Shown piece by piece: positions 3,066 through 64,000 of a stretch of 64,000 bases of DNA. The stretch is from Escherichia coli. Lineage in GTDB: Bacteria; Pseudomonadota; Gammaproteobacteria; Enterobacterales; Enterobacteriaceae. A program made the translations under genes and the position numbers. The stretch's first letter is position 1. Each line of letters opens with the position of its first letter. The notes beneath the pieces were generated by a model. It was not told the origin of the DNA and did not search any database. It was given only the letters and a program-made list of their open reading frames with translations. The stretch is taken from assembly GCF_003991155.1 (NCBI RefSeq), contig NZ_CP031294.1. The stretch is one strand, 5' to 3'.

Positions 3066-3110
3066 GTTTTCTTATCCTTTTAAACAAATTGTTTTCTTAA
3101 TAAGATAATT

Positions 3111-30541: not shown

Positions 30542-30584
30542 GTGCTTTCCTTTGTTTTTTAAACAAATTGTTTTCTAGTATTAG

Positions 30585-31334
30585 TTAATTAGATAGGGGA
30601 TCAATAAACCGCCGTGCTTCTTCCAGTTCTTCTGGAAAGTGGGCGGAAATAAGGCGCTCTGGAACGATTTCCATTAGCCAGATAGCGGAGAAAATTGCGC
30701 GTATGCGCTTGCTGCGGGGGATGGTGCGTAAACGCTCCAGAATCCACTCAAAATAGCTTTCCTGGATCGGGTTGAACTGCATGTCTCCTATATGCTTAAA
30801 GCTAACCAGAGAGTCATCCAGACGGGTTGTTGCGCGTCTGGCTAATTTCTCTTCAAATATCTCAATCAGTTCTGGCTGCCACAAATGCTGTGGGCGAGGC
30901 AGCTTGTCCCACAGACGTCGTGCAGCTGCGGAAAGAACGGTGGAGATAAAGTAGTCGTATGAGCAGCAATAGCGGTCAGCAAACTGGCGTGCTTTCCATA
31001 GCGACGTTTTATTGGCAGTCGACAACTCCTGATAAGGCAGGCGTTTTAACCCGGTGGTGAACGGAGCTGTTTCAAAGTGTTCGCGACCGTGCGTCAGCAT
31101 GATATTTGAGTACTGACGTTTGTATGCCTCCGTAAACAGACAGGTGGCCATAAGAGGATGCATGTCGCGGTAATCAAACCACTTCGTATCGAAGAGTTCA
31201 GCCTCGTCTTTGCAGCGCGACAAACCAATGTTTTCAGCAACCCACTTATCCATAACAGCGGTATTCCACTCTGTCATGAAGTCGTACTGGTCGTTGTCGA
31301 TGGTGTCGAAAAAGATTTGGCTCATGTGGCTCAC
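30585..31334 (-). CDS. Hypothetical protein
   Basis: 249-aa ORF; upstream region carries both conserved intergenic motifs. Confidence 0.45.
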   Translation of the reverse strand: MSHMSQIFFDTIDNDQYDFMTEWNTAVMDKWVAENIGLSRCKDEAELFDTKWFDYRDMHPLMATCLFTEAYKRQYSNIMLTHGREHFETAPFTTGLKRLPYQELSTANKTSLWKARQFADRYCCSYDYFISTVLSAAARRLWDKLPRPQHLWQPELIEIFEEKLARRATTRLDDSLVSFKHIGDMQFNPIQESYFEWILERLRTIPRSKRIRAIFSAIWLMEIVPERLISAHFPEELEEARRFIDPLSN

Positions 31335-31503
31335 CTGGTAGGTAGTTACTTACTTATCACAATGAGCTGATGATAGCGATTGGTGGCAGTTTTTGGAAGT
31401 GGAAACGGAAGGGAGTTGTTCTGGTGGGTATCTTTTGAAAGACCTGCTTCCGTATATTTAATAAGTTACTTATTATTTATATACAGAAACAGGTCATGAA
31501 TAC

Positions 31504-33207
31504 TTAATTATTAAGCAATCTGCTCACACGTAGTTTGTTAAGACTTGATCTAGAGGCCAGTTTCGTTAATGCACCTATTGCTTTATTCGTGATTTTTTGC
31601 TGTTCTTCTGTTAGTTCTTGCATACTTTTGAATCTGAGCAACCCCTTTCTCACTAAATCCAAAGCATCCTGATTGCGGGATAATATCCACTTTAAATAAT
31701 CATCTTCAGAGAAACTGTTAAGATATGCTATGTCACTATGATTAAATTTGCCTTCAATTATTTTGTATAAAACATTCTCTAAATTAGTCTCTTCAGGCTT
31801 CTTATCCATCAATTTTTTTTGAATTAGCAGACCTAACGTTTCGTTACCAAATATCTCTACATACAAATTCCGAAAAGCAGTATAAGCATCATCTTGGCTA
31901 ACAAAGGCATCTGCATATGCCTCTATATAACTATCACAATCAATCTCCAATCTATTTAAGATATCAATCAAGCCTATGAAGTGAGCAACAGGTATGTGTG
32001 AAAGATTGTCGTTAATTACACATTTTATCTTAGAAATAAACTCAGATTCATTGTCCTTGAATGAGTCACTAAAAATATCCCAAACATTGTTAACCTCACA
32101 TAAAGCCTTGTGTTCTTTATATTGTTTATTTTTTTCTTCTATTATACCTCGAATATTGCTTTCAGTAGAAAGATAACCATTCTTGAGATAAAAATCTATG
32201 TCATCATCGAAAGCAATTTCCGCTCGTTCATAAATAATATCAAGACTATTAATAAATGAATATACAGAATCATCCTTTTTATCATCTAACATGTAATCAA
32301 ATACATGTATGTTTTTAATTGATTCTTTAAACAAGGCATAATCAACACCTGGAACACCAGAATAGTAAACCACTGAAAACAGAACCAATCTATTGATAAA
32401 ACTTTCTCTAACCTTATCCTCTGCCAAGCTTAGCTCATTCCTAAGATTAACCAGAGATGTTTTTATTTTATTTAATATACGGATATTTTTAATGCCTAAG
32501 TCATTTGCTAAGACTTTTAACAAAAGAAAATCAGAATCAGTTTCATAAAAAACTTTACGTAAGTTCTTCTCAGGCGTAGGATCGTATTTTATTTCGACAT
32601 CAATTACTTTTTCTCTGTACTCTAAAAACTGTTTTTTTGCAGTTTCATCATGTAAATTATCTTCATTTAAAATTAGAACAACTTTGCAACCTTTTCTTCT
32701 TGCTAATTCATCAATTACCCCCATAATTTCTTTAACTTCTAGCGAATTACCTTTTCTTTCAACATCATCAATACAAACCAAATAATTATTAACAAATTTA
32801 TACTCAAGAGATGACAGCAGGTTATCTGTTTTGAACCCAAAAAAATCGTTCTTTCCGAAATGTATTAAAAATTTTGACAAGGAGTTGTATTTCAACCATC
32901 CCCAAAACCCATTTCTATAACGAATCATAGTTCGATCCGTTTCAGATAAAATTAGTTCTTTATATTTCTTTTCATTAATTGGTGTGGCACAATGATAAAG
33001 AGTTTTTTTAATATCACCAATAGAGTTAACCCCAAACAAAGAAACATACGAATATGCATTAAAATCTAATCCTTCAGAATGCTTAGTATAAAAACTATTC
33101 CAATAATGAGTTTTACCAACGCCCCAATCTCCTTTTATGACGGCAACCCGATGATCTGAAACTAGAAAATTTTTTAGAAATGATTCTATCGATTCCATTA
33201 GTATCAA
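31504..33207 (-). CDS. AT-rich accessory gene: P-loop NTPase, KAP-family-like
   Basis: Walker A GDWGVGKTH near the N-terminus, Walker B LVCIDDVER; 567 aa; markedly lower GC than neighbours. Confidence 0.5.
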   Translation of the reverse strand: MILMESIESFLKNFLVSDHRVAVIKGDWGVGKTHYWNSFYTKHSEGLDFNAYSYVSLFGVNSIGDIKKTLYHCATPINEKKYKELILSETDRTMIRYRNGFWGWLKYNSLSKFLIHFGKNDFFGFKTDNLLSSLEYKFVNNYLVCIDDVERKGNSLEVKEIMGVIDELARRKGCKVVLILNEDNLHDETAKKQFLEYREKVIDVEIKYDPTPEKNLRKVFYETDSDFLLLKVLANDLGIKNIRILNKIKTSLVNLRNELSLAEDKVRESFINRLVLFSVVYYSGVPGVDYALFKESIKNIHVFDYMLDDKKDDSVYSFINSLDIIYERAEIAFDDDIDFYLKNGYLSTESNIRGIIEEKNKQYKEHKALCEVNNVWDIFSDSFKDNESEFISKIKCVINDNLSHIPVAHFIGLIDILNRLEIDCDSYIEAYADAFVSQDDAYTAFRNLYVEIFGNETLGLLIQKKLMDKKPEETNLENVLYKIIEGKFNHSDIAYLNSFSEDDYLKWILSRNQDALDLVRKGLLRFKSMQELTEEQQKITNKAIGALTKLASRSSLNKLRVSRLLNN

Positions 33208-33249: not shown

Positions 33250-33609
33250 TCAACCTTTCTTCATCAACTCTCGTTTAATTTCATCGGTACGCATCGTAAC
33301 GTCGGCAGCTGTGATCGCCTCGTTAAGCTTCACGATGTCCTCGATTTCCTGCGGTGACTTCTCTGCCAGATGGAAAATGGCTGCTCGAATCACGTCAGAA
33401 CGAGTGAACTTCTCGAAGCGAGGGATGAACTTCATCATCTCCAGCAGTTCGAAGTATTCGTCTTCCAGTGACATTGTGCGGCTTTTAATTTTCTCTTTGC
33501 CACGAGTCGGGCGTCCCTGTGGTCTGACTGGTTGGCGCAAAGGAGTTGTGTTCTTAGCCGGTGCATCAGGCTCTTTGCGCTTTGCTAGGTCACCCATTTT
33601 CATGGACAT
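33250..33609 (-). CDS. Small basic protein downstream of parA (possible ParG/RHH-like partition adaptor)
   Basis: 119 aa, translationally coupled to parA (shared coordinate 33609); role inferred from position only. Confidence 0.35.
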   Translation of the reverse strand: MSMKMGDLAKRKEPDAPAKNTTPLRQPVRPQGRPTRGKEKIKSRTMSLEDEYFELLEMMKFIPRFEKFTRSDVIRAAIFHLAEKSPQEIEDIVKLNEAITAADVTMRTDEIKRELMKKG

Positions 33610-34277
33610 TATTCTTCTTCCTCCAGACTCAACAGATAATCTACAAATTCTTCAAACTCGGCTTCCGCCTTTTTGTCGCGCTCGTTACCGGTCATTTCAA
33701 AGATAGAACGACCAGACTCTTCCGCATCATCATAGACGTTGCGGTTATATAGATTGACTGGCGCAGACTCGATGCCAAACGTCTCAACAATCTCTTTAGC
33801 CGCCAGAATGCGAGACACTTGTGATGGCAAAGCCGGGCACTGGTTCATGACCGCGCGGACCTTCACTTTATCGTTTACATTACGAACATTGTCGATAATA
33901 GGATCAATGTCACGTAAAGATTTCAAATCACGACGCTTAGGACGCAGCGGGATAATGATAACGTCAGCCATCAGCATCGCTTGTCGCTGAATTTCGGAGT
34001 CGAAGCCACCAGCATCTACCACTACAAACTCAGCTCTACCCTGAAGCGATTTTAGGTGCTTAATGATGTCATCCTGAACGTATGCAAAAGGAATCAGCTC
34101 AAGGTCTTCGTTCTGTCGACGGTCTTCACACCAGCTCGTTGTCGTGCGCTGAATATCTATATCGGTAATATAAACCTTCTTCTTCTTTTTGACTTTCAGG
34201 CAAACGGCAATTTGCTGGGCAACGGTGGATTTGCCAGGCCCGCCCTTTGTGCCGCCAACCACAAAGATCTTGGTCAT
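33609..34277 (-). CDS. parA: ParA/Soj-family partition ATPase
   Basis: Deviant Walker A GGTKGGPGKST at the N-terminus, ParA-like Walker A' and B segments (VVVDAGG). Confidence 0.65.
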   Translation of the reverse strand: MTKIFVVGGTKGGPGKSTVAQQIAVCLKVKKKKKVYITDIDIQRTTTSWCEDRRQNEDLELIPFAYVQDDIIKHLKSLQGRAEFVVVDAGGFDSEIQRQAMLMADVIIIPLRPKRRDLKSLRDIDPIIDNVRNVNDKVKVRAVMNQCPALPSQVSRILAAKEIVETFGIESAPVNLYNRNVYDDAEESGRSIFEMTGNERDKKAEAEFEEFVDYLLSLEEEE

Positions 34278-34453
34278 TGGAGAGTTCCCTTTGCGTATAT
34301 AATTATCGTCTGAAACAACTTGTTTTCTTATATGTGATATAGCCTAAATGCCTACGGCTGTGGTGTAAAGGTTAAATGGTAGGTGCTGCCTTAGAATTTT
34401 TAGGCGAGAATTAATGGCTGTTAACAAAAAAGGCGACCAAAGTCGCCTGATTT

Positions 34454-37431: not shown

Positions 37432-40400
37432 TCAGTTACTTGTTGCCCCAACAGTACCTGCAAATTTCAGCCATTGACCTGACGGACTTCTATTACTACG
37501 GTAATGATAAACGAGGATTGCGTTTGTAACTCCACCGTAGTCAGCTTTATGTGACGTTGTTAAACGAATTGTATAATCACCGTTAGGTAGATTAAAAACT
37601 TCGATTATAGATTCTGCTAATTCTACAGCACCAAATCCCGTTATATTGTTGATACTGCCAGCATTGAATCCCATAGCATCGCCAAAGCCAATCCAATAAC
37701 TTTTGCTAAACGCCCCATTTGATTTTAGGTGGCTAATGAATGTGGACAAACTCATGCCCATATCCCCACCTGAAACAGAGGAAGTTCGCACAGTCATACT
37801 TGGAAGAGCACTGCTCTTCACATAGGAACTTAGAAGGTTTGTTACCTCTGTTTTCGTATAGGCATTAAGGTTAGCCGCAGTCAAAGTAATATCGGCAGAG
37901 CCATCAAACGCCACACCAGCAATTTTCCTTGCTGTCTGCAATTTTGTGGCAGTGGCAGCATTACCAGTAGTGTTCTGATTACCGGTTGTATTCACACCAG
38001 GTATTGAATCCTTAGCGGTATATACCTGCGCCCACGCAGACCATGCCGCATCAGTGGTATCTCTTCGGGAGCGAATGAAAACCGGCGCATGTGCACCGCT
38101 CGTACCACTCCAGCCAATAAGCAACTCGCCCTCACCAGCAGCACTCGCACCTTTCATGTGCAATACGTTGCCATACGTGGTCGGGTAGCTATTGCTGTAC
38201 GCCTCGTACATTTGAATGCCAGCAGTACCTTGAGCAGAACCGCTTAACGCCGTAACTCGGCCACGAGATACCAATGTATTAATGTTGATATCGCCTGAGC
38301 CATCAAACTTAACACCATTGATGTTTCTCGCTGTTTGCAACTTCGTAGCTGTTGAAGCATTACCGTTCAAACTACCATTTACGCCACCAGTCACATTTAG
38401 TCCATTACCAATTGATACAGCACCGCTGGTATTATTAATTGTAATAGGTCGCAAACCGTTCCATGAACCTAATGTGTCTCCTGATGCTGTTAGCATGAAA
38501 TATGTGTTCGATCCATCATTACGGATAAAGAACCCAAAGCTACCGTAAGCAATGCGGAAACCATTTGCATATTTTGAAATGATCTCGCCAGAAGATGTCA
38601 AACCTCCAGATAATGTACCACCGGTAAGAGGTAATGCACCGACATCAGAGGCTGTTGGTTTGTTTTTCGTGTTATATACTCTTCGCCATCCTGGAGAATA
38701 ATCTGTGCCATTAAATACATAGATAAACTCCGCATTAGTGAGAGCACCAGAGACACTCGTCGTTGTGGCCGTTGTTATACGGATCGTATAATTGTTTGAG
38801 CTACTACCGTTATTAAATACCTCTATAACAGCTCCTGCCAATGGAATAACGCCACAACCAGTTTCACTATTTGGTATGGTTGCACTATTGGCATAGGCCC
38901 ACGCACATCGAGCAATCCATGACTTTGTGTTAAATGCTCCATTATTTTGCAATAACGTCACTAACTGTGCTGTTGTTATTGCTCCGCCATTACTTCCTGT
39001 AGTTAACCAACCAGTAGGAGATGCCGGGCAACCTATATTTGCTGGCGACAAGGAAATATTTGCCGAGCCGTCAAACGACACCCCATTAATAGTACGCGCA
39101 GTCTGCAACTTCGTAGCAGTAGCCGCGTTGCCCGTTGTATTCTGATTACCAGTCGTATTAACACCTGGCAAATTAATATTCGCAGTACCATCAAAGCTCA
39201 CGCCGCCGATAGTTCTTGCCGTCTGAAGTTTTGTAGCAGTTGCAGCATTACCAGTGGTGTTCTGATTACCCGTAGTATTTACACCTGGAAGGTTGATATT
39301 TGCAGAACCGTCGAAACCAACTCCACCGATAGATCTTGCCGTCTGCAATTTCGTGGCTGTACTTGCATTACCATTCAATGAACCAGTTAATCCACCTGTA
39401 ACAGACAACGGACCTGAAACTGTTCCTCCGGTTGTTGGCAGTGCTCCAATATCTGATGGTGTAGGTTTCTGATGTGAGCTATACATCGTATAAACAACAC
39501 CATCGGTAACGCTGGAAGGCTTACTCGCTGAATATGTTGGCGAGGTATAAATAGAAACTGTCGCATTTGCAGTACAATCCCAATGGATATTTACACGAGT
39601 CGCATAATTGCCAATCTCAACGTAAATATCATATGTATCGCCGGATGTGTTGATCCAGGCGAAATTCGTTAATCCGACAGCTGTACGCTTCCACAAAGCA
39701 CCTGTAATCCCTTTGGGGTTTCCATTGCCTGCTCGTAGAACCAGTTCTGAAATGCCTGCCTGATGTGGGGAGCCGACGTTGTAACCAGCGCCACCAATCA
39801 ATGCGATGTAAACGATGGAACTCGCTTGTGGCATGGTAACCGTAGCCAGTTTGAACCACCCTGCCCCGCCAGAGAAAGACATCGTTACTGAATTTAAAGT
39901 ACCAATATCTTTCGGCGTTAATGTGATATCCGCAGTCAGTGCTTTACCGTTAACTTTTCGGTTAGATGGCACCCTGCTATTCGCATTGTCATTGGCTGCT
40001 TTAACTGCTTTTGGCGTTGCGGCCAGCGATTCACTGGTGCTGTCGACAGCACTGCTAAGTTTCACAACACCTTTAGTTGTAAGGCTTGCGTCTTCCATCG
40101 CAACTGCACCGGCAATCTCTTCAGCACGATCAGCAGCAGCTTCCGCACGGGTCGCAGCGGATTCAGCAGCAGTTTTGCTCTGAGATGCTGCCGTCGCACT
40201 GCCTGCCGCCTCTGTTGCTTTCGTGGATGCCGTCGTGGCACTGCCCTTCGCTGCTGACGCCTGTCTGGTCGCCTCATCTTTTGAAGCAGACGCAGATGAT
40301 GCCGATGACGCCGCCGAACTGGCGGACGATGCGGCAGCCGTTTTTGAGGATTCTGCGCTGGTTTCCGACGCTTTCGCGTTCGTTTCGGATGTCTTCGCTG

Positions 40401-41553: not shown

Positions 41554-44500
41554 TCACAGACGGCCAATTCTTACTCGTAGGACGTTGTTATCGTCATAAA
41601 CGTCAATCCGCTGACCATTTATAACCAATCTCCCATTGCCGCCGCTATTACCGTTGATCTCAAGCGTTCCATTTTTGCCGAACCGCCATCCAGATCTACC
41701 GCTAACAAAATTGGTAGATTGCAGATCGCCTACTTTTGCATTGGTGATTGTGCCATCCTTGATATACGCTCCATTCATATAGGCGATACTGTTTTCGATA
41801 ACAAATGGCGTTGTGATCTTCCCGTTAACAGAGTTGACCAAACCAAACCTGTCCGCCTGAACCAAAAACTGAGATAGCCCAGTGGTGTCAATACCAAGCG
41901 CAATACCGGCAACATACTTCTGCCCTCCGCTCGTTGAAGTCTCCATTTTCAACGTCCACGCGGTTGATACTTTTTTGTTGGTATCAGCAATAGCTGTTGC
42001 CTGCTGTTGAATTGTCGCGGTATTTCCATCCACCTCTGCTTTCAGAGTATCGATTCGCCCACTCAGAGCATTATCTGCCTGCGTTCTCGCTGTCGTTTCA
42101 GTTGTGACCGCCGCAGAAATGTTGGCTGCTGTTTGAGACTCTAAGTTTGTGATTTGAGTCGCCAATGCAGCATCTTGCTCTGTACGCGTTTTCGTTTCGG
42201 TTGCTACAGCCGCTTTAATATCCTCTTTGTATTGAGAGGTCAGCTTGGTGATCTGAGACGACAACGCCGAGTCAGCATCAGTTCGAGCCTGCGTTTCAAC
42301 TGCAACGGCCGCACTAATATCTTTCGCTGTCTGTGCTTTTAAACTTGAAACCTCTTTTGTTAAAGCGGTATCACCATCTGCACGAGCCGTTGTTTCTCTG
42401 GCAAGAGACGCCTCGAGATCATTAGCTTTTGCTGTAAGAGACGTAATCTGGGTAGACAATGCACTATCGGCATCAGTCCTTGCTTTTGTCTCTACAGCAA
42501 CCGCTGCGGCAATATCAGTTCCGGTTTGTGCTCGCAGGCTGTTAATTTCTCGTGAGAGCGCCTGGTCAGCACTTGCTCTGGCCTCCTGCTCCTGAGTGAT
42601 GGCCGCGGATATATCACCGTCAACCTTTGACTGAAGCTGGTTTATTTGTTTGGCTAACGCAGAGTCCCCGCTTGCTCGGGCCTCCTGCTCACTACGTATT
42701 GCAGCAGAAATATCATCATCAACCTTTGCCTGAAGTTGGGTGATCTGGCTTGCCAGAGCCGAATCTTCCGTTGCTCGGGCTTCTTGCTCTTCCTTAATAG
42801 CTGCGACGATATCGTTGCTTACTTTCGACTCAAGCTGAGTGATCTGTGTCGTCAGAGCTTCATCGGCAGATGTACGAGCCTCCTGCTCTGTACTAATCGC
42901 CGCGCTGATATCTCCTTCAAACTTAGATTGCAGCTGAGTGACACGCTTTGCCAACGCTTCATCGCCATCGGCACGAGCGGTGGACTCTTCCAGAATACTG
43001 GCCTTAATGTCTTCGCCAATTTCTACGCGAATTTCCTCAACCTTCGTGGCCATTGCAGACATATCATCAGCAAAGGTTTTCTGTGTTGTTGCGATCTTCG
43101 CGTTATTGACCATCTGCTTGTGCTGGTCTTCATCTTGACGAAGAGCCAGGTCAATATTTGTTTTGGCTAACGCCTCAATGTTCGTAGTCAGTTCTGCACT
43201 GGCACGATCGACCTCTGCAACCGTCTTTTTCATTTCTTCAACGGCAGCGGAGCTTTCCTCTACCGTTGACTGCAACACTTCCAGTTGTTTAGCGTTTGCA
43301 GCATCGCCTTCAACACGAGCCTCGCTTTCCTTAGCAATAAGAGCCGCCGCTTCATCTCTTGCAGCCTTTATTGCCTCGACTGTATTAGCGAGAGCTTTAT
43401 CGTGTTCAGATACGGTGTTTTCGATTTCAACAATTGCAGCATCAGTAGCATCAATTTTTTCAAACGCTTCATTGACCTTGTCGATCGTTGCCGAAACCTC
43501 ACCTTTAAGCTCGGTTTGTGCGTTCTCCAAAGCATCGCTACGCTCGTTGAATTTTATTTCAAAATCCGCGAGGTTATCGCTGAACTGCTTATCTAATTCA
43601 GCTATATCTTCCTTAACGTCGTTTACCGCCCCCTCCAAAGATTCGACGCTCTGGTTGATATGCTCATTTAACTCGTCAACTGCTTCTTGAGAGGCTTTGC
43701 TGTTGATGTCCTCAAGCAGAGCCTGACCAAGCTCGGAAGATGTAATTTTGCCAGTCAGGAACGACAGTACATCGCGAGTTGTCGCCTCTGTACCCAAGTT
43801 TGAGTTCGGAGGACTTAACATACCTCGCTTGTTCGATGCTCGAACCCAGTAATACCACGTTTCGCTATCCCCAAGACCAGCATGTGTAAAGGTGGTGCTT
43901 GCAGACTCTGCGATCAGTTTCGCCGTATCCAGATTGTTGGTCTGGGATGCGTAAACATTAATGTGATCAAGGTCTACCGAATCTGGATTAACCCAATTCA
44001 GTATCACATTACGATAGTCTCCAACGGCCGTTAATGACGTTGGGGCATCCGGCGGTGTCATTGTGCCCAACACCTGATAAACGGTACTGATAATCTCTGT
44101 TTTTTTACCGTTGAATGAAACCGCATACAGCTGGAAGTCGTAGCGTCCATTCTCCGCGACATTAACGATTTCGTATTGCTCTTCGGTTACACGCGCCGAT
44201 TGCCAGTTCGATACATTGTTTTCATCAGAACGTCGCCAACTGATCCAATACTCTGGAGATTTCCCTTCCCATGTTGCAGTCAGTTTTACTGACAGGTTGC
44301 CCGGGCTTGAGAGATAAGTCCCTTCAGTGATTTGCAGATTAGATGGCTTGGAGTAAGTTGGGTCCAATACCGTCGTATTCTGCGGGATCAGCGTTGCACC
44401 ATTGTCGATTGCCTCATATTTAGACGGATTGTTCTCAACAGCGGTGATGTCAAAGCTACCCGGCGTTTCCCCTTGCGCGATGTTAACGATGCGAACGCGC

Positions 44501-61941: not shown

Positions 61942-63198
61942 CTATCGAGAACCACCAAGAATAACACGGTTTTTGACTGGATACCTACGATGTACTGGAT
62001 AGCCCAATGCGTCTGCACTATGCTCAATGCCACCTGTCTTATCCATATCTCGTGTTCCAGGCTTGTAGATGACTTTTTCCAGTGAATCAATCAAATGCTT
62101 GCACTTCGGATCGATATACAGCCGGATATCTCCAGATGCGGTCATCAGCATTCGGTTAACAGCATTAACACGATCCGCAATTGGCGGGTGCTTTTTCGAA
62201 TAATCGACACGTAAGAATCCCTTCTCTTTGAATATGTCGACGTCAGACTCCCCGCGAGCATGTTGGCGATAAGCACCTGCCGGATCTGGAAATACCGTTA
62301 TCTGTGATTTCCAGCGCCAGAAGCGTCTCTCAAGCTCATCACAAACCTCTGCCGTGTTAGAGGAAAAGAGCACCAATTCATCAATTGCCCATAGCTCACC
62401 ATTTGGCTGAGGTTGCAAAATTACTGAAGACATCGGGTCAATGTTGAAGTCCTGCCCTACCCATATAGGCAACCGAGGGTTGAACTGAAGCGGTTTTACA
62501 TGCACGTTACGATCGAACGGGTAGTAAACGCGCCCGGACATGTTCTCAAAGCTCGCCAGGTACTCCTGAGCGAACGATTTCGGGTCCATATCGTTCTTAG
62601 CAGCTTCAATTTCCGCCGTAGGTACAAACGGAGAATCGGCAGTTACAAACTGCCAGCTCTTCCACTGTCCCTTTCTTTGCAGCTCTACGTTCTGGCCTAT
62701 AGTCCACAGTTTGTGAAATTCCGAGAAGCCTTTTGGCGTACCAATGATCAGTGCACCGCCGCGTGTCGATGAAAGAGTAGGTCGTAACACCTTGTACCAG
62801 GTGTCAGCCTTCATATCCTGAAATTCATCAAGCACTACAAAATGCAACGCTACGCCGCGCAGAGTGTCAGGCTTATCAGCACCTTTGAGGGCGATCTCCG
62901 AACCGTTCTTCAACACGATTGTCATCGTGGTGTCGTTCTTTTTCCTAACCCACTTACGAGGCAGAACTTCCTGTAGATCGTCCCACAAAATCTGGCGAGC
63001 CATCTGGTAAGTAGGAGCGACATACCAGACTCTTTGCTTTTTTTCCTTTGCCGCCGCACGAATAATAGTGGAGATCGACAACCGGGATTTTCCCCAGCGT
63101 CGACCAGCACAAACAACTTTAAATCGATGCGGAGACTGGAAGACTTTCATCTGTCCAGAATGCAGTTGCACAAGACTGAGCGAGGACGGGATTGCCAT
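61942..63198 (-). CDS. Terminase large subunit
   Basis: Walker A CAGRRWGKS, Walker B VVLDEFQD, C-terminal nuclease-like region with acidic residues; 418 aa. Confidence 0.8.
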   Translation of the reverse strand: MAIPSSLSLVQLHSGQMKVFQSPHRFKVVCAGRRWGKSRLSISTIIRAAAKEKKQRVWYVAPTYQMARQILWDDLQEVLPRKWVRKKNDTTMTIVLKNGSEIALKGADKPDTLRGVALHFVVLDEFQDMKADTWYKVLRPTLSSTRGGALIIGTPKGFSEFHKLWTIGQNVELQRKGQWKSWQFVTADSPFVPTAEIEAAKNDMDPKSFAQEYLASFENMSGRVYYPFDRNVHVKPLQFNPRLPIWVGQDFNIDPMSSVILQPQPNGELWAIDELVLFSSNTAEVCDELERRFWRWKSQITVFPDPAGAYRQHARGESDVDIFKEKGFLRVDYSKKHPPIADRVNAVNRMLMTASGDIRLYIDPKCKHLIDSLEKVIYKPGTRDMDKTGGIEHSADALGYPVHRRYPVKNRVILGGSR

Positions 63199-63830
63199 TA
63201 TTCGTCCTCCCCTTCACTTCCATCATCTGTCGCATCAAATTCGCTTAGAGCTTCTTCTTCCAACGTCTCAAGCAATTCGTCATCGATGATTTCAGGCTCG
63301 TCGTCTTCCTGACGTAATTTCGCCACCTGGGAAGGCGTAAGCTCACCAAATACCAGGTTCGGAATTTCTTCCTCGTCATTTTCCGCATGATCCATGCCCA
63401 ATGCTTTGGACGAAACTTCAAAGCATTTTGCAAGGGTATTACTGGCTCTCTGTAAGCTCTTGAGAGAATCCTCAATCGCCCCTAAAGGCTTACCCTCACG
63501 TTTGGCCGTAGTGACTTCGACCATCACCATCTGCCCCAACGCATACGCCCAGCCGTCATAACGTGTACGACGTTCTTCTATCTTTTCCGCACGGGCTTTA
63601 GCGCGAAGCTCTGCGTCAGATTTAAGAGACTCACGAACCATCTTCCCAACAGAGTCCGCGCCTTTCTCTAATCCTCGCTTTTTGAAATGTCTGGAGAGTG
63701 TTTCACGACGAATGCCGTACTCTTCCTCCAGCTTTGAGAGTGTATATTCGCCTGACGTCCATTTGGCTTCAGCTTCGGCCCACTCCGCTGGTGTCAGGCG
63801 AGTTTTTACCTCGTCTTTTTCGACCGTCAT
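63198..63830 (-). CDS. Terminase small subunit
   Basis: 210 aa with acidic C-terminal tail and an N-terminal HTH-like segment; stop overlaps the large subunit start. Confidence 0.5.
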   Translation of the reverse strand: MTVEKDEVKTRLTPAEWAEAEAKWTSGEYTLSKLEEEYGIRRETLSRHFKKRGLEKGADSVGKMVRESLKSDAELRAKARAEKIEERRTRYDGWAYALGQMVMVEVTTAKREGKPLGAIEDSLKSLQRASNTLAKCFEVSSKALGMDHAENDEEEIPNLVFGELTPSQVAKLRQEDDEPEIIDDELLETLEEEALSEFDATDDGSEGEDE

Positions 63831-64000
63831 AGATCCCTCTAAAACACACAGAGCGCGTCCATGCGCTCTAAAACAACTTGTTTACTGCATCTGCTAACCA
63901 ACTTGTTTTCTGGGGTGTTTAATTAGGTCTGGCATGTCTTACGAAGCCTGCTTCCGTATATATTTAATAAGTTACTTATTATTTATATATACAGATGCAG

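Follow-up and report, generated by a model that had tools for sequence, protein, structure and literature searches.

A hairpin-forming palindrome in three copies between the gene modules of an SSU5-type phage-plasmid

A near-identical repeat in the stretch of Escherichia coli DNA analysed here (the window, 64,000 nucleotides) is a 55-bp hairpin-forming palindrome; an SSU5-type phage-plasmid carries three copies of it, each at a boundary between gene modules. The window covers the first 64 kb of this replicon, which is 110.7 kb long and of SSU5/pHCM2 type; the full-plasmid reference was pEC17CM6_2 (NZ_CP190020.1, 110,667 bp), whose positions 1-64000 equal the window base for base, as checked over a 1-kb overlap. 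We tentatively read each copy as an atypical intrinsic terminator that insulates modules, rather than as a promoter or a DNA-packaging end, and give this reading slightly less than an even chance. The arm sequence was not found in the literature searched, and the element appears to be undescribed.

SSU5/pHCM2/pMT1-type phage-plasmids are common, with relatives in Klebsiella, Salmonella Typhi and Yersinia pestis, and some of these relatives carry resistance and defence genes. A conserved three-site barrier at module boundaries is a testable candidate for what keeps maintenance and cargo genes on and lytic modules silent. The palindrome also marks a site of cargo exchange and, in practical terms, it is a repeat that breaks assemblies and probably accounts for where the SSU5 reference record starts. 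If it is merely a terminator the finding is modest; if its arm is read by a dedicated factor, it would belong to a new regulatory circuit.

Structure and gene context of the palindrome

The initial annotation had reported a near-identical repeat of about 47 bp with two copies in the window. The gapped pattern CCTGCTTCCGTATAT(0-2)TTAATAAGTTACTTATTATTTATATA(0-2)CAGA has exactly two matches in the window, at 31443-31487 and 63947-63995 (45 and 49 nt), and none in 100 shuffles, which confirms the repeat but places its ends 1-2 nt further in than first noted. An identical 31-mer is common to 31453-31483 and 63959-63989, where chance expectation is 0. The copies had been said to differ only by TA/AT indels; this is true inside the span, which holds two indels, but substitutions lie just outside it (CAGAAACAGGTC versus CAGATGCAGGTC). 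The GACCTG/CAGGTC bracket described around copy 1 is present at 31441-31446 and 31490-31495 and, because the repeat is a 55-nt palindrome, it is the base of a stem. Copy 2 is bracketed likewise, its last bases and an outer box lying past the window end: when the alignment of both copies was carried beyond position 64000 on the full plasmid, the core of copy 2 reached 64003 and had the same build as copy 1. The palindromic structure and the third copy, at 94.2 kb, go beyond the initial annotation.

Each copy has arms of 14-17 bp (CCTGCTTCYGTATA / TATACRGAAGCAGG) around an AT-rich centre. The core of copy 1 (31441..31495, minus strand) begins 8 nt past the stop codon of the KAP NTPase gene and, read on the plus strand, is made up of the left arm GACCTGCTTCCGTATAT (31441-31457), the centre TTAATAAGTTACTTATTATTT (31458-31478), which is itself a dyad (AATAAGT-T-ACTTATT), and the right arm ATATACAGAAACAGGTC (31479-31495). 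On the minus strand a T-rich tail, TTTCAAAAGA (31431..31440), stands directly 3' of the stem and reads TCTTTTAAAAG or TCTTTTTCTATG in other lineages; beyond it is the downstream outer box CCACCAGAAC (31418..31427, minus strand), the counterpart of CTCCCAGACC at copies 2 and 3. The core of copy 2 occupies 63946..64000 on the minus strand, is cut by the window end and extends to 64003 in the full plasmid. One of its outer boxes, CTCCCAGACC, lies at 64013-64022 of the full plasmid, 3 nt past the stop codon of an 88-aa gene, and pairs in the consensus fold with the other at 63926..63932 (GGTCTGG on the plus and CCAGACC on the minus strand). Copy 3 is found at 94221-94275 of the full plasmid, in the same orientation as copies 1 and 2, between a dam-type methylase gene and a 76-aa gene.

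The inverted outer boxes stand about 12 nt outside the arms on the gene strand (GGTCTGGGAG upstream, CTCCCAGACC downstream), so that arms and outer boxes together make an imperfect palindrome of about 115 bp. Outer-box pairs 11-18 / 109-115 of the consensus fold are kept in 10-14 of 14 sequences; a comparison of flanks (118 elements among the matches listed) showed that the upstream partner box of copy 1 is missing in the KAP-cargo variant. The centre is AT-rich throughout and variable in sequence, with a length of 23-31 nt that changes mostly via (TA)n indels, of which the TA/AT differences seen initially are instances. Among the listed elements the tail reads TCTTTT.. at copy 1 and CTGTTTT.. 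or CTTTTT.. at copy 3 in nearly all lineages. The flanks of copy 1 diverge, yet the T-rich start is kept in nearly all of its listed variants. At copy 2 the stem is followed by CTTCGTAAG or TTCTGAA, with no T-tract in any lineage listed.

All genes flanking the three copies are on the minus strand, and the gene context initially claimed for the two window copies holds. The KAP NTPase gene (31504-33198, with a Pfam KAP_NTPase match) is upstream of copy 1 and the gene at 30585-31325 is next downstream, while the presumed small-terminase gene (63198-63830, phrog_867), whose start codon is about 115 nt downstream of copy 2, stands directly before the large terminase gene. At every site the element begins 3-8 nt past the stop codon of the co-oriented gene before it, and about 110 nt separate its end from the next start codon, a position at the end of a unit, where a terminator would be expected. 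Partition and cargo genes precede copy 1 and replication genes follow it, with helicase and primase genes as neighbours and parA close by. At copy 2, which has ParB-like and terminase genes as neighbours, a ParB-like/ABC operon gives way to the late packaging and structural operon. Copy 3, outside the window, separates nucleotide-metabolism and dam genes from the next unit. The plasmid's own origin, repA with iterons, lies at 1-1500, away from the copies.

Distribution, arm conservation and sequence exchange

The repeat is present in related genomes, at three syntenic sites. An exact-pattern scan of IMG/VR gave at least 120 loci, from which 118 elements were extracted; all 118, among the matches listed, map by their flanks to the three intergenic sites in one orientation (56 at the site of copy 1, 33 at that of copy 2 and 29 at that of copy 3). 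A scan of one genome per species, covering 100,044 species, gave 12 stretches. Five are genuine, with flanks that place each of them at one of the three sites; they come from Y. pestis pMT1, Buttiauxella, Kluyvera and two contigs of one MAG labelled Bacillota. The remaining seven resemble chance matches, of which about four were expected by our own estimate. Flanking probes matched 256-258 of 5,426 complete E. coli genomes (258 with a 601-nt probe of the copy 2 region), always on plasmids, with no chromosomal match in any of the 5,426. We therefore discarded a dispersed repeat of the REP, ERIC or MITE kind, as the element has no chromosomal places in these E. coli genomes and only relatives of the plasmid family carry it among the 100,044 species genomes. 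REP/BIME and ERIC sequences, which are thought to influence mRNA stability or termination, resemble it as imperfect palindromes that recur downstream of genes, in intergenic DNA that is transcribed; our element, however, keeps to three fixed syntenic sites, shows no sign of dispersal and is absent from host chromosomes and other replicons. Searches against Rfam returned only chance-level miRNA-hairpin matches to the element (E > 0.5), and over the whole window only tRNAs reached the gathering score.

The arms CCTGCTTCYGTATA / TATACRGAAGCAGG are nearly invariant at all three sites, across genera and in more than 100 genomes. Since they hardly vary, RNAalifold finds almost no covariation (covariation term -0.16), the exceptions being the stem base and the outer boxes; at the stem base compensatory changes do occur, with pair 32/94 being AU in seven sequences, GC in four and UA in one. 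Differences between lineages extend to all three sites at once. The 3' arm occurs as TATACGGAAGCAGG three times in the E. coli/SSU5 group, and the K. pneumoniae plasmid pVH1-2-1 has a 14-mer variant of it, TATAGGAGCCAGGC, exactly three times, one per site and always after an AT-rich stretch. At two of these sites the 14-mer is without a nearby partner arm, which implies that the sequence has a specific role in addition to pairing. A private centre variant (TTAAATAATAAAT..) is found at all three sites of one genome, and the centre types of copies 1 and 2 are combined differently in different genomes. Concerted change of this kind points to gene conversion or to a sequence-specific factor, and we infer that gene conversion, an arm-recognising factor or both keep the copies near-identical. 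The plasmid encodes RecA-like, exonuclease and SbcCD-like proteins, which are relevant to gene conversion.

With a probe spanning copy 1, most of the 256 matching E. coli plasmids stop being homologous at about 31494-31508, the outer edge of the palindrome, and only 27 of the 256 cover the KAP NTPase side. Together with the mixed centre types, this break indicates that a mosaic boundary lies at the element and that the element participates in the exchange of sequence. The earlier suggestion of a recombination site is borne out in this evolutionary sense only, as the element has neither a recombinase-type core nor cassette arrays and is confined to three fixed sites. Specifically, a site-specific recombination site of lox, dif or attC type, in which inverted recombinase sites of 11-13 bp enclose a spacer of 6-8 bp, was rejected on a spacer that is variable and 23-31 bp long, and an attC-like cassette arrangement was rejected on the finding that all 118 elements among the matches listed are at the three sites, none of them an additional copy among the cargo genes. 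The gene for the KAP-family P-loop NTPase (31504-33198) is itself variable cargo of low GC content (0.29); only about 27 of the 256 related E. coli plasmids have it, and other plasmids have different genes at that spot.

Folding, termination and alternative functions

In the predicted fold of the palindrome's minus-strand RNA, a 3x1 internal loop (AAA opposite A) separates a stem of 17 bp from a second stem of 7 bp, which a triloop closes. Predicted energies for the three copies are about -29 kcal/mol (z about -8) on the minus strand, against -19 to -27 on the plus strand; copy 1 gives -28.7 kcal/mol (z = -8.0) versus only -19.2 on the plus strand, and copy 2 gives -29.2 kcal/mol (z = -8.5). 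Single-stranded DNA adopts the same predicted fold with z of -6 to -8 (copy 1, z = -8.0), and an extended fold that includes the outer boxes reaches -44 to -54 kcal/mol for copy 2. The more stable strand is the sense RNA in 28 of 33 sequences of copy 1, 15 of 19 of copy 2 and only 10 of 20 of copy 3. Strand asymmetry, through G·U pairs in the sense RNA, was tried as a means of telling an RNA from a DNA function and was given up, as it fails at copy 3 and single-arm substitutions are found on both arms.

Under the reading that we favour, a strong hairpin at the 3' end of a transcription unit would act at the RNA level and halt transcription from one module before the next. Position, hairpin and T-tracts make termination the most likely function of the copies. 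Compensatory changes at the stem base and the greater stability of the sense RNA at copies 1 and 2 point the same way. Like intrinsic terminators, the copies place a stem-loop directly after a co-oriented stop codon, with a U-rich tail at copies 1 and 3 and a candidate promoter of the next unit downstream. The T-tract after these two copies is present in nearly all lineages listed, and candidate promoter or operator motifs lie 45-85 nt further downstream, the candidate promoters at 45-75 nt. The order at copies 1 and 3 is accordingly stop codon, palindrome, candidate promoter and next gene, with an operator-like motif between promoter and gene at copy 1. Copy 2, without a T-tract, would perhaps be only a pause or RNase III site, acting jointly with a canonical terminator 75 nt downstream. 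That canonical terminator-like hairpin, TAGAGCGCATGGACGCGCTCTG followed by TGTGTTTTAG (63849..63870, minus strand), lies between copy 2 and the ribosome-binding site of the presumed small-terminase gene, which it abuts; its T-tract and its place immediately ahead of that ribosome-binding site suggest attenuation or antitermination control of the late operon.

The main support for a terminator or insulator role comes from diverged relatives, in which the position is kept, the sequence has turned over and canonical terminators occupy the equivalent sites. Klebsiella relatives whose small terminase is 59-64% identical have the same gene order with other hairpins at the three sites, and in two Klebsiella plasmids the tool called canonical terminators at 4 of 6 equivalent sites. 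The copy 1 equivalent in K. oxytoca pCAV1099-111 is AGAATAAGGCGC-TTTTG-GCGCCTTATTCT followed by TTGTGT, called as a terminator on the gene strand and centred in a larger imperfect palindrome (about 170 nt). At its copy 2 equivalent, a degenerate left arm (CCTGATTCTGTATG) is accompanied by a hairpin, CAGAGC..GCTCTG plus T8, that was also called as a gene-strand terminator. In K. pneumoniae pVH1-2-1 terminators were called at the copy 1 and copy 2 equivalents, and at the copy 3 equivalent a hairpin with the tail TGTTTTTCTGG was seen by eye only and not called by the tool. Between the 88-aa and small-terminase genes, a palindrome is also present in Xenorhabdus, Moellerella and two further lineages, where its arms differ. 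A search for exact 10-bp inverted repeats in the Acinetobacter plasmid p2018HBAB1-1 (small terminase 32% identical) gave no obvious three-copy equivalent. In a further instance of concerted change, the copy 1 and copy 3 equivalents of K. oxytoca pCAV1099-111 have in common a 43-nt repeat, 97.7% identical, that overlaps the end of the dam gene.

Several features are nevertheless atypical of terminators. The terminator scan called none of the three copies. In place of the usual short GC-rich stem (about 5-14 bp with a loop of 3-8 nt), they have a much longer helix of 17 bp, an internal loop and 7 bp with an AT-rich top, and copy 2 lacks the U-tract. Unlike ordinary terminators they also repeat the same sequence three times, are conserved across genera and have extra inverted outer boxes. 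Ordinary GC-rich terminators exist elsewhere in this genome, and an outer box beyond the T-tract would be outside any terminated transcript, both of which count against termination at the copies, as do the missing sense-strand advantage at copy 3 and the pVH1-2-1 14-mers that lack a nearby partner arm. A plain terminator requires no fixed sequence, and the invariance of the arms argues against one because a hairpin selected for pairing only should drift by compensatory change.

The initial annotation had proposed a duplicated promoter, but no sigma-70 hexamers at 16-18 bp spacing were called inside any copy, where by eye there are only weak -10-like hexamers. A better candidate lies outside the repeat, 43 nt downstream of copy 1: a sigma-70-like TTCCAA-17-TATCAT (31398->31370, minus strand), identified by eye and with our own scan, which would serve the 30585-31325 gene and is followed by the operator-like motif at 31342-31357. 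Its equivalents were called by the tool in the K. oxytoca and K. pneumoniae plasmids, and downstream of copy 3 there is a candidate promoter, TAGAAC-16-TAAAAT. A LexA box in the arms was dismissed, as each arm has by eye only a CTGTAT half-site at the wrong spacing.

A cis site for an element-encoded factor would explain arms that are conserved rather than covarying and that have lineage-specific variants at all three sites, TATACGGAAGCAGG three times in one lineage versus TATAGGAGCCAGGC three times in the other. Such a site could serve antitermination of the nut/put type. Alternatively, the AT-rich centre and the 3' arm could together form an activator-dependent promoter with a terminator behind it, an arrangement like the late cassette PR'-tR' of lambda. 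During lytic growth the factor would allow RNA polymerase to pass into the next module. The spacing to terminators is suggestive, with the pVH1-2-1 unit 8-35 nt upstream of a terminator-type hairpin at its copy 1 and copy 3 equivalents and E. coli copy 2 about 75 nt upstream of the canonical terminator directly before the presumed small-terminase gene. An activator-dependent promoter may lie in the AT-rich centre: by eye, weak -10-like hexamers (AAATAT, AATAAT, TAATAT; A at 2, T at 6) precede the arm in every copy. We still consider such a site quite unlikely, since there is no -35 element and no tool-called promoter, a non-exhaustive search found no Q-, N- or RfaH-like protein, the T-tract right after the arm at copies 1 and 3 suits a terminator stem better than an initial transcribed region, and candidate promoters and an operator-like motif are found further downstream. 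The closest comparison is with lambda nutL/nutR and HK022 putL/putR, which likewise are a few near-identical hairpin copies at fixed positions relative to operons and terminators, kept in sequence within a lineage and different between lineages; here, however, the hairpin is far larger than boxB and stands at the end of the upstream unit. A more specific proposal, which is speculative and unlikely, is that the three copies are cognate sites for a phage-plasmid-encoded factor that reads the 3' arm and the adjacent AT-rich stretch, as RNA or DNA, and switches three inter-module barriers from closed in the plasmid or lysogenic state to open in the lytic state. Were it true, the arm variants would reflect co-evolution of site and factor, and SSU5-type phage-plasmids would have a three-site antitermination or regulated-insulator system specific to them.

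A site that acts as DNA, in duplex or cruciform form, is unlikely; it might be a lytic replication origin with an AT-rich unwinding centre between inverted initiator sites, present three times per genome like HSV oriS/oriL, an N15-like dispersed centromere or one of multiple headful pac sites. Fixed-sequence arms, (TA)n tracts, an AT-rich centre and the inverted outer boxes GGTCTGG/CCAGACC would all suit such a site, as would three dispersed co-oriented copies, with copy 1 by helicase and primase genes and near parA and copy 2 by ParB-like and terminase genes. The SSU5 record begins in copy 2, and the large terminase is of Terminase_6N type, compatible with headful packaging. This enzyme is about 25% identical to those of T5-like, Jersey-like and chi-like phages, and its match among solved structures is the P74-26 ATPase domain; both are too distant to infer cos or headful packaging. 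HSV-1 oriS/oriL and the N15 centromere repeats also have three or four dispersed palindromic copies per genome, and oriS has an AT-rich centre between inverted fixed-sequence sites, but in our element the distance between the arms is variable, the sites lie right after stop codons and relatives have GC-rich terminator hairpins instead. Arm spacing that changes from 23 to 31 bp via TA indels is unsuited to two phased duplex half-sites and argues for recognition of a paired stem or a single arm. Further, in the K. oxytoca / K. pneumoniae VH1-2 lineage the centres at copies 1 and 3 are GC-rich terminator hairpins and not unwinding elements, the plasmid origin is at 1-1500, GC skew is uninformative (along the full plasmid both the skew and its cumulative form run monotonically, track gene orientation and give no origin signal), and none of these functions needs tight packing just past stop codons.

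Cutting by RNase III between modules, leaving an mRNA-stabilising hairpin with little or no termination, would resemble the T7 early R sites and is very unlikely. RNase III substrates typically have an RNA helix of at least about 20 bp, frequently interrupted by an internal loop, and the predicted fold would offer one: a helix of about 24 bp with a conserved asymmetric loop (AAA opposite A) and a triloop, lengthened by the outer boxes at copy 2 (-44 to -54 kcal/mol) and in the palindromes of about 170 nt in Klebsiella. The absence of a U-tract at copy 2 also agrees with it, whereas the U-tracts at copies 1 and 3 do not. Invariant arms are left unaccounted for, because RNase III needs no fixed sequence, and the element matches no Rfam family except spurious miRNA-type ones. 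In the T7 early region, too, several hairpins of 50-60 nt that are related to one another and contain an internal loop lie in the gaps between co-transcribed blocks; here the arms are nearly invariant and U-tracts follow two copies.

Extremely improbable is a cos site, or part of one, at which the large terminase would nick inside copy 2 to give cohesive virion ends. The usual place of cos is just upstream of the small-terminase gene, and copy 2, alone among the copies, lies there, about 115-170 nt upstream of the presumed gene. What speaks for the cos-related role raised in the initial annotation is that the linear records of SSU5 (JQ965645.1) and Cyrano (OV696614.1) start and end inside copy 2, beginning at ...ACTTATTA|AATATATACGG, 9 nt from the dyad centre. 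Cos is a single site, however, and three copies per genome make it unlikely: copy 1 is identical to copy 2 over 45-49 nt, the putative cut position included, and with three co-oriented copies the cuts would yield fragments of 30-48 kb. Other phage records of this family have different starting points. Cyrano itself is a re-annotated circular plasmid, and its paper gives no termini; no report of SSU5 termini was met in the literature searched. An assembly break suffices to explain the records. The break in SSU5 is the exact point at which its copies 1 and 2 cease to be identical, and among the IMG/VR matches listed one unrelated metagenomic contig ends inside the element, at copy 1, which indicates that assemblers break in this repeat; none ends at copy 2, and contig ends therefore lend no support to physical ends there. 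The ends of the SSU5 and Cyrano records are probably such a break, later copied by alignment.

Operator-like motifs and other repeats

The operator-like motif downstream of copy 1 belongs to a family. A 20-bp quasi-palindrome with the consensus ATAAGTAAGTACTTACTTAT has about 25 copies, mostly intergenic, and same-strand copies lie about 17-330 nt upstream of the next start codon. Sites in the window are 2279, 2606, 4224, 7752, 14263, 20059/20067, 22555, 25208, 26079, 31342-31357, 41504/41512, 48431, 54936, 58507, 60419/60427 and 61934, with more beyond 64 kb. Judged from sequence, the motif looks like the operator of a master regulator, and related TTAGTAAGCACTTACTAA palindromes are present in the Acinetobacter phage-plasmid.

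Another palindromic motif, AGAAAACAAnTTGTTT, is found at 3078-3097, 30557-30576, 34309-34328, 63867-63886 and 63892-63911, and as an inverted pair at 78270-78333 of the full plasmid. One copy each directly precedes the DUF7238 gene, the helicase gene and parA, and two copies precede the presumed small-terminase gene; a second regulator or the RHH-type partition protein may have its sites here. The small protein encoded beside the ParA-like ATPase (33250-33603 and 33609-34277) has a weak RHH-type match, in keeping with a type Ib partition pair. Weak winged-helix matches, all under curated cut-offs, were obtained for the 88-aa protein whose gene directly precedes copy 2.

Repeats of other kinds are also present in the window. 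Iteron-like inverted repeats lie beside repA at 1082-1497, and at 21171-22194 pairs of 16-bp inverted repeats (CACAGCGTTGAGCGGT.., CACAACGTTGAGGCCA..) flank the tRNA cluster. Diverged repeats of 77-131 nt (37871-39372) are found inside the gene for a 1342-aa tail protein, and four tandem 99-nt repeats (42541-42936) inside the gene for a 1577-aa tail fibre.
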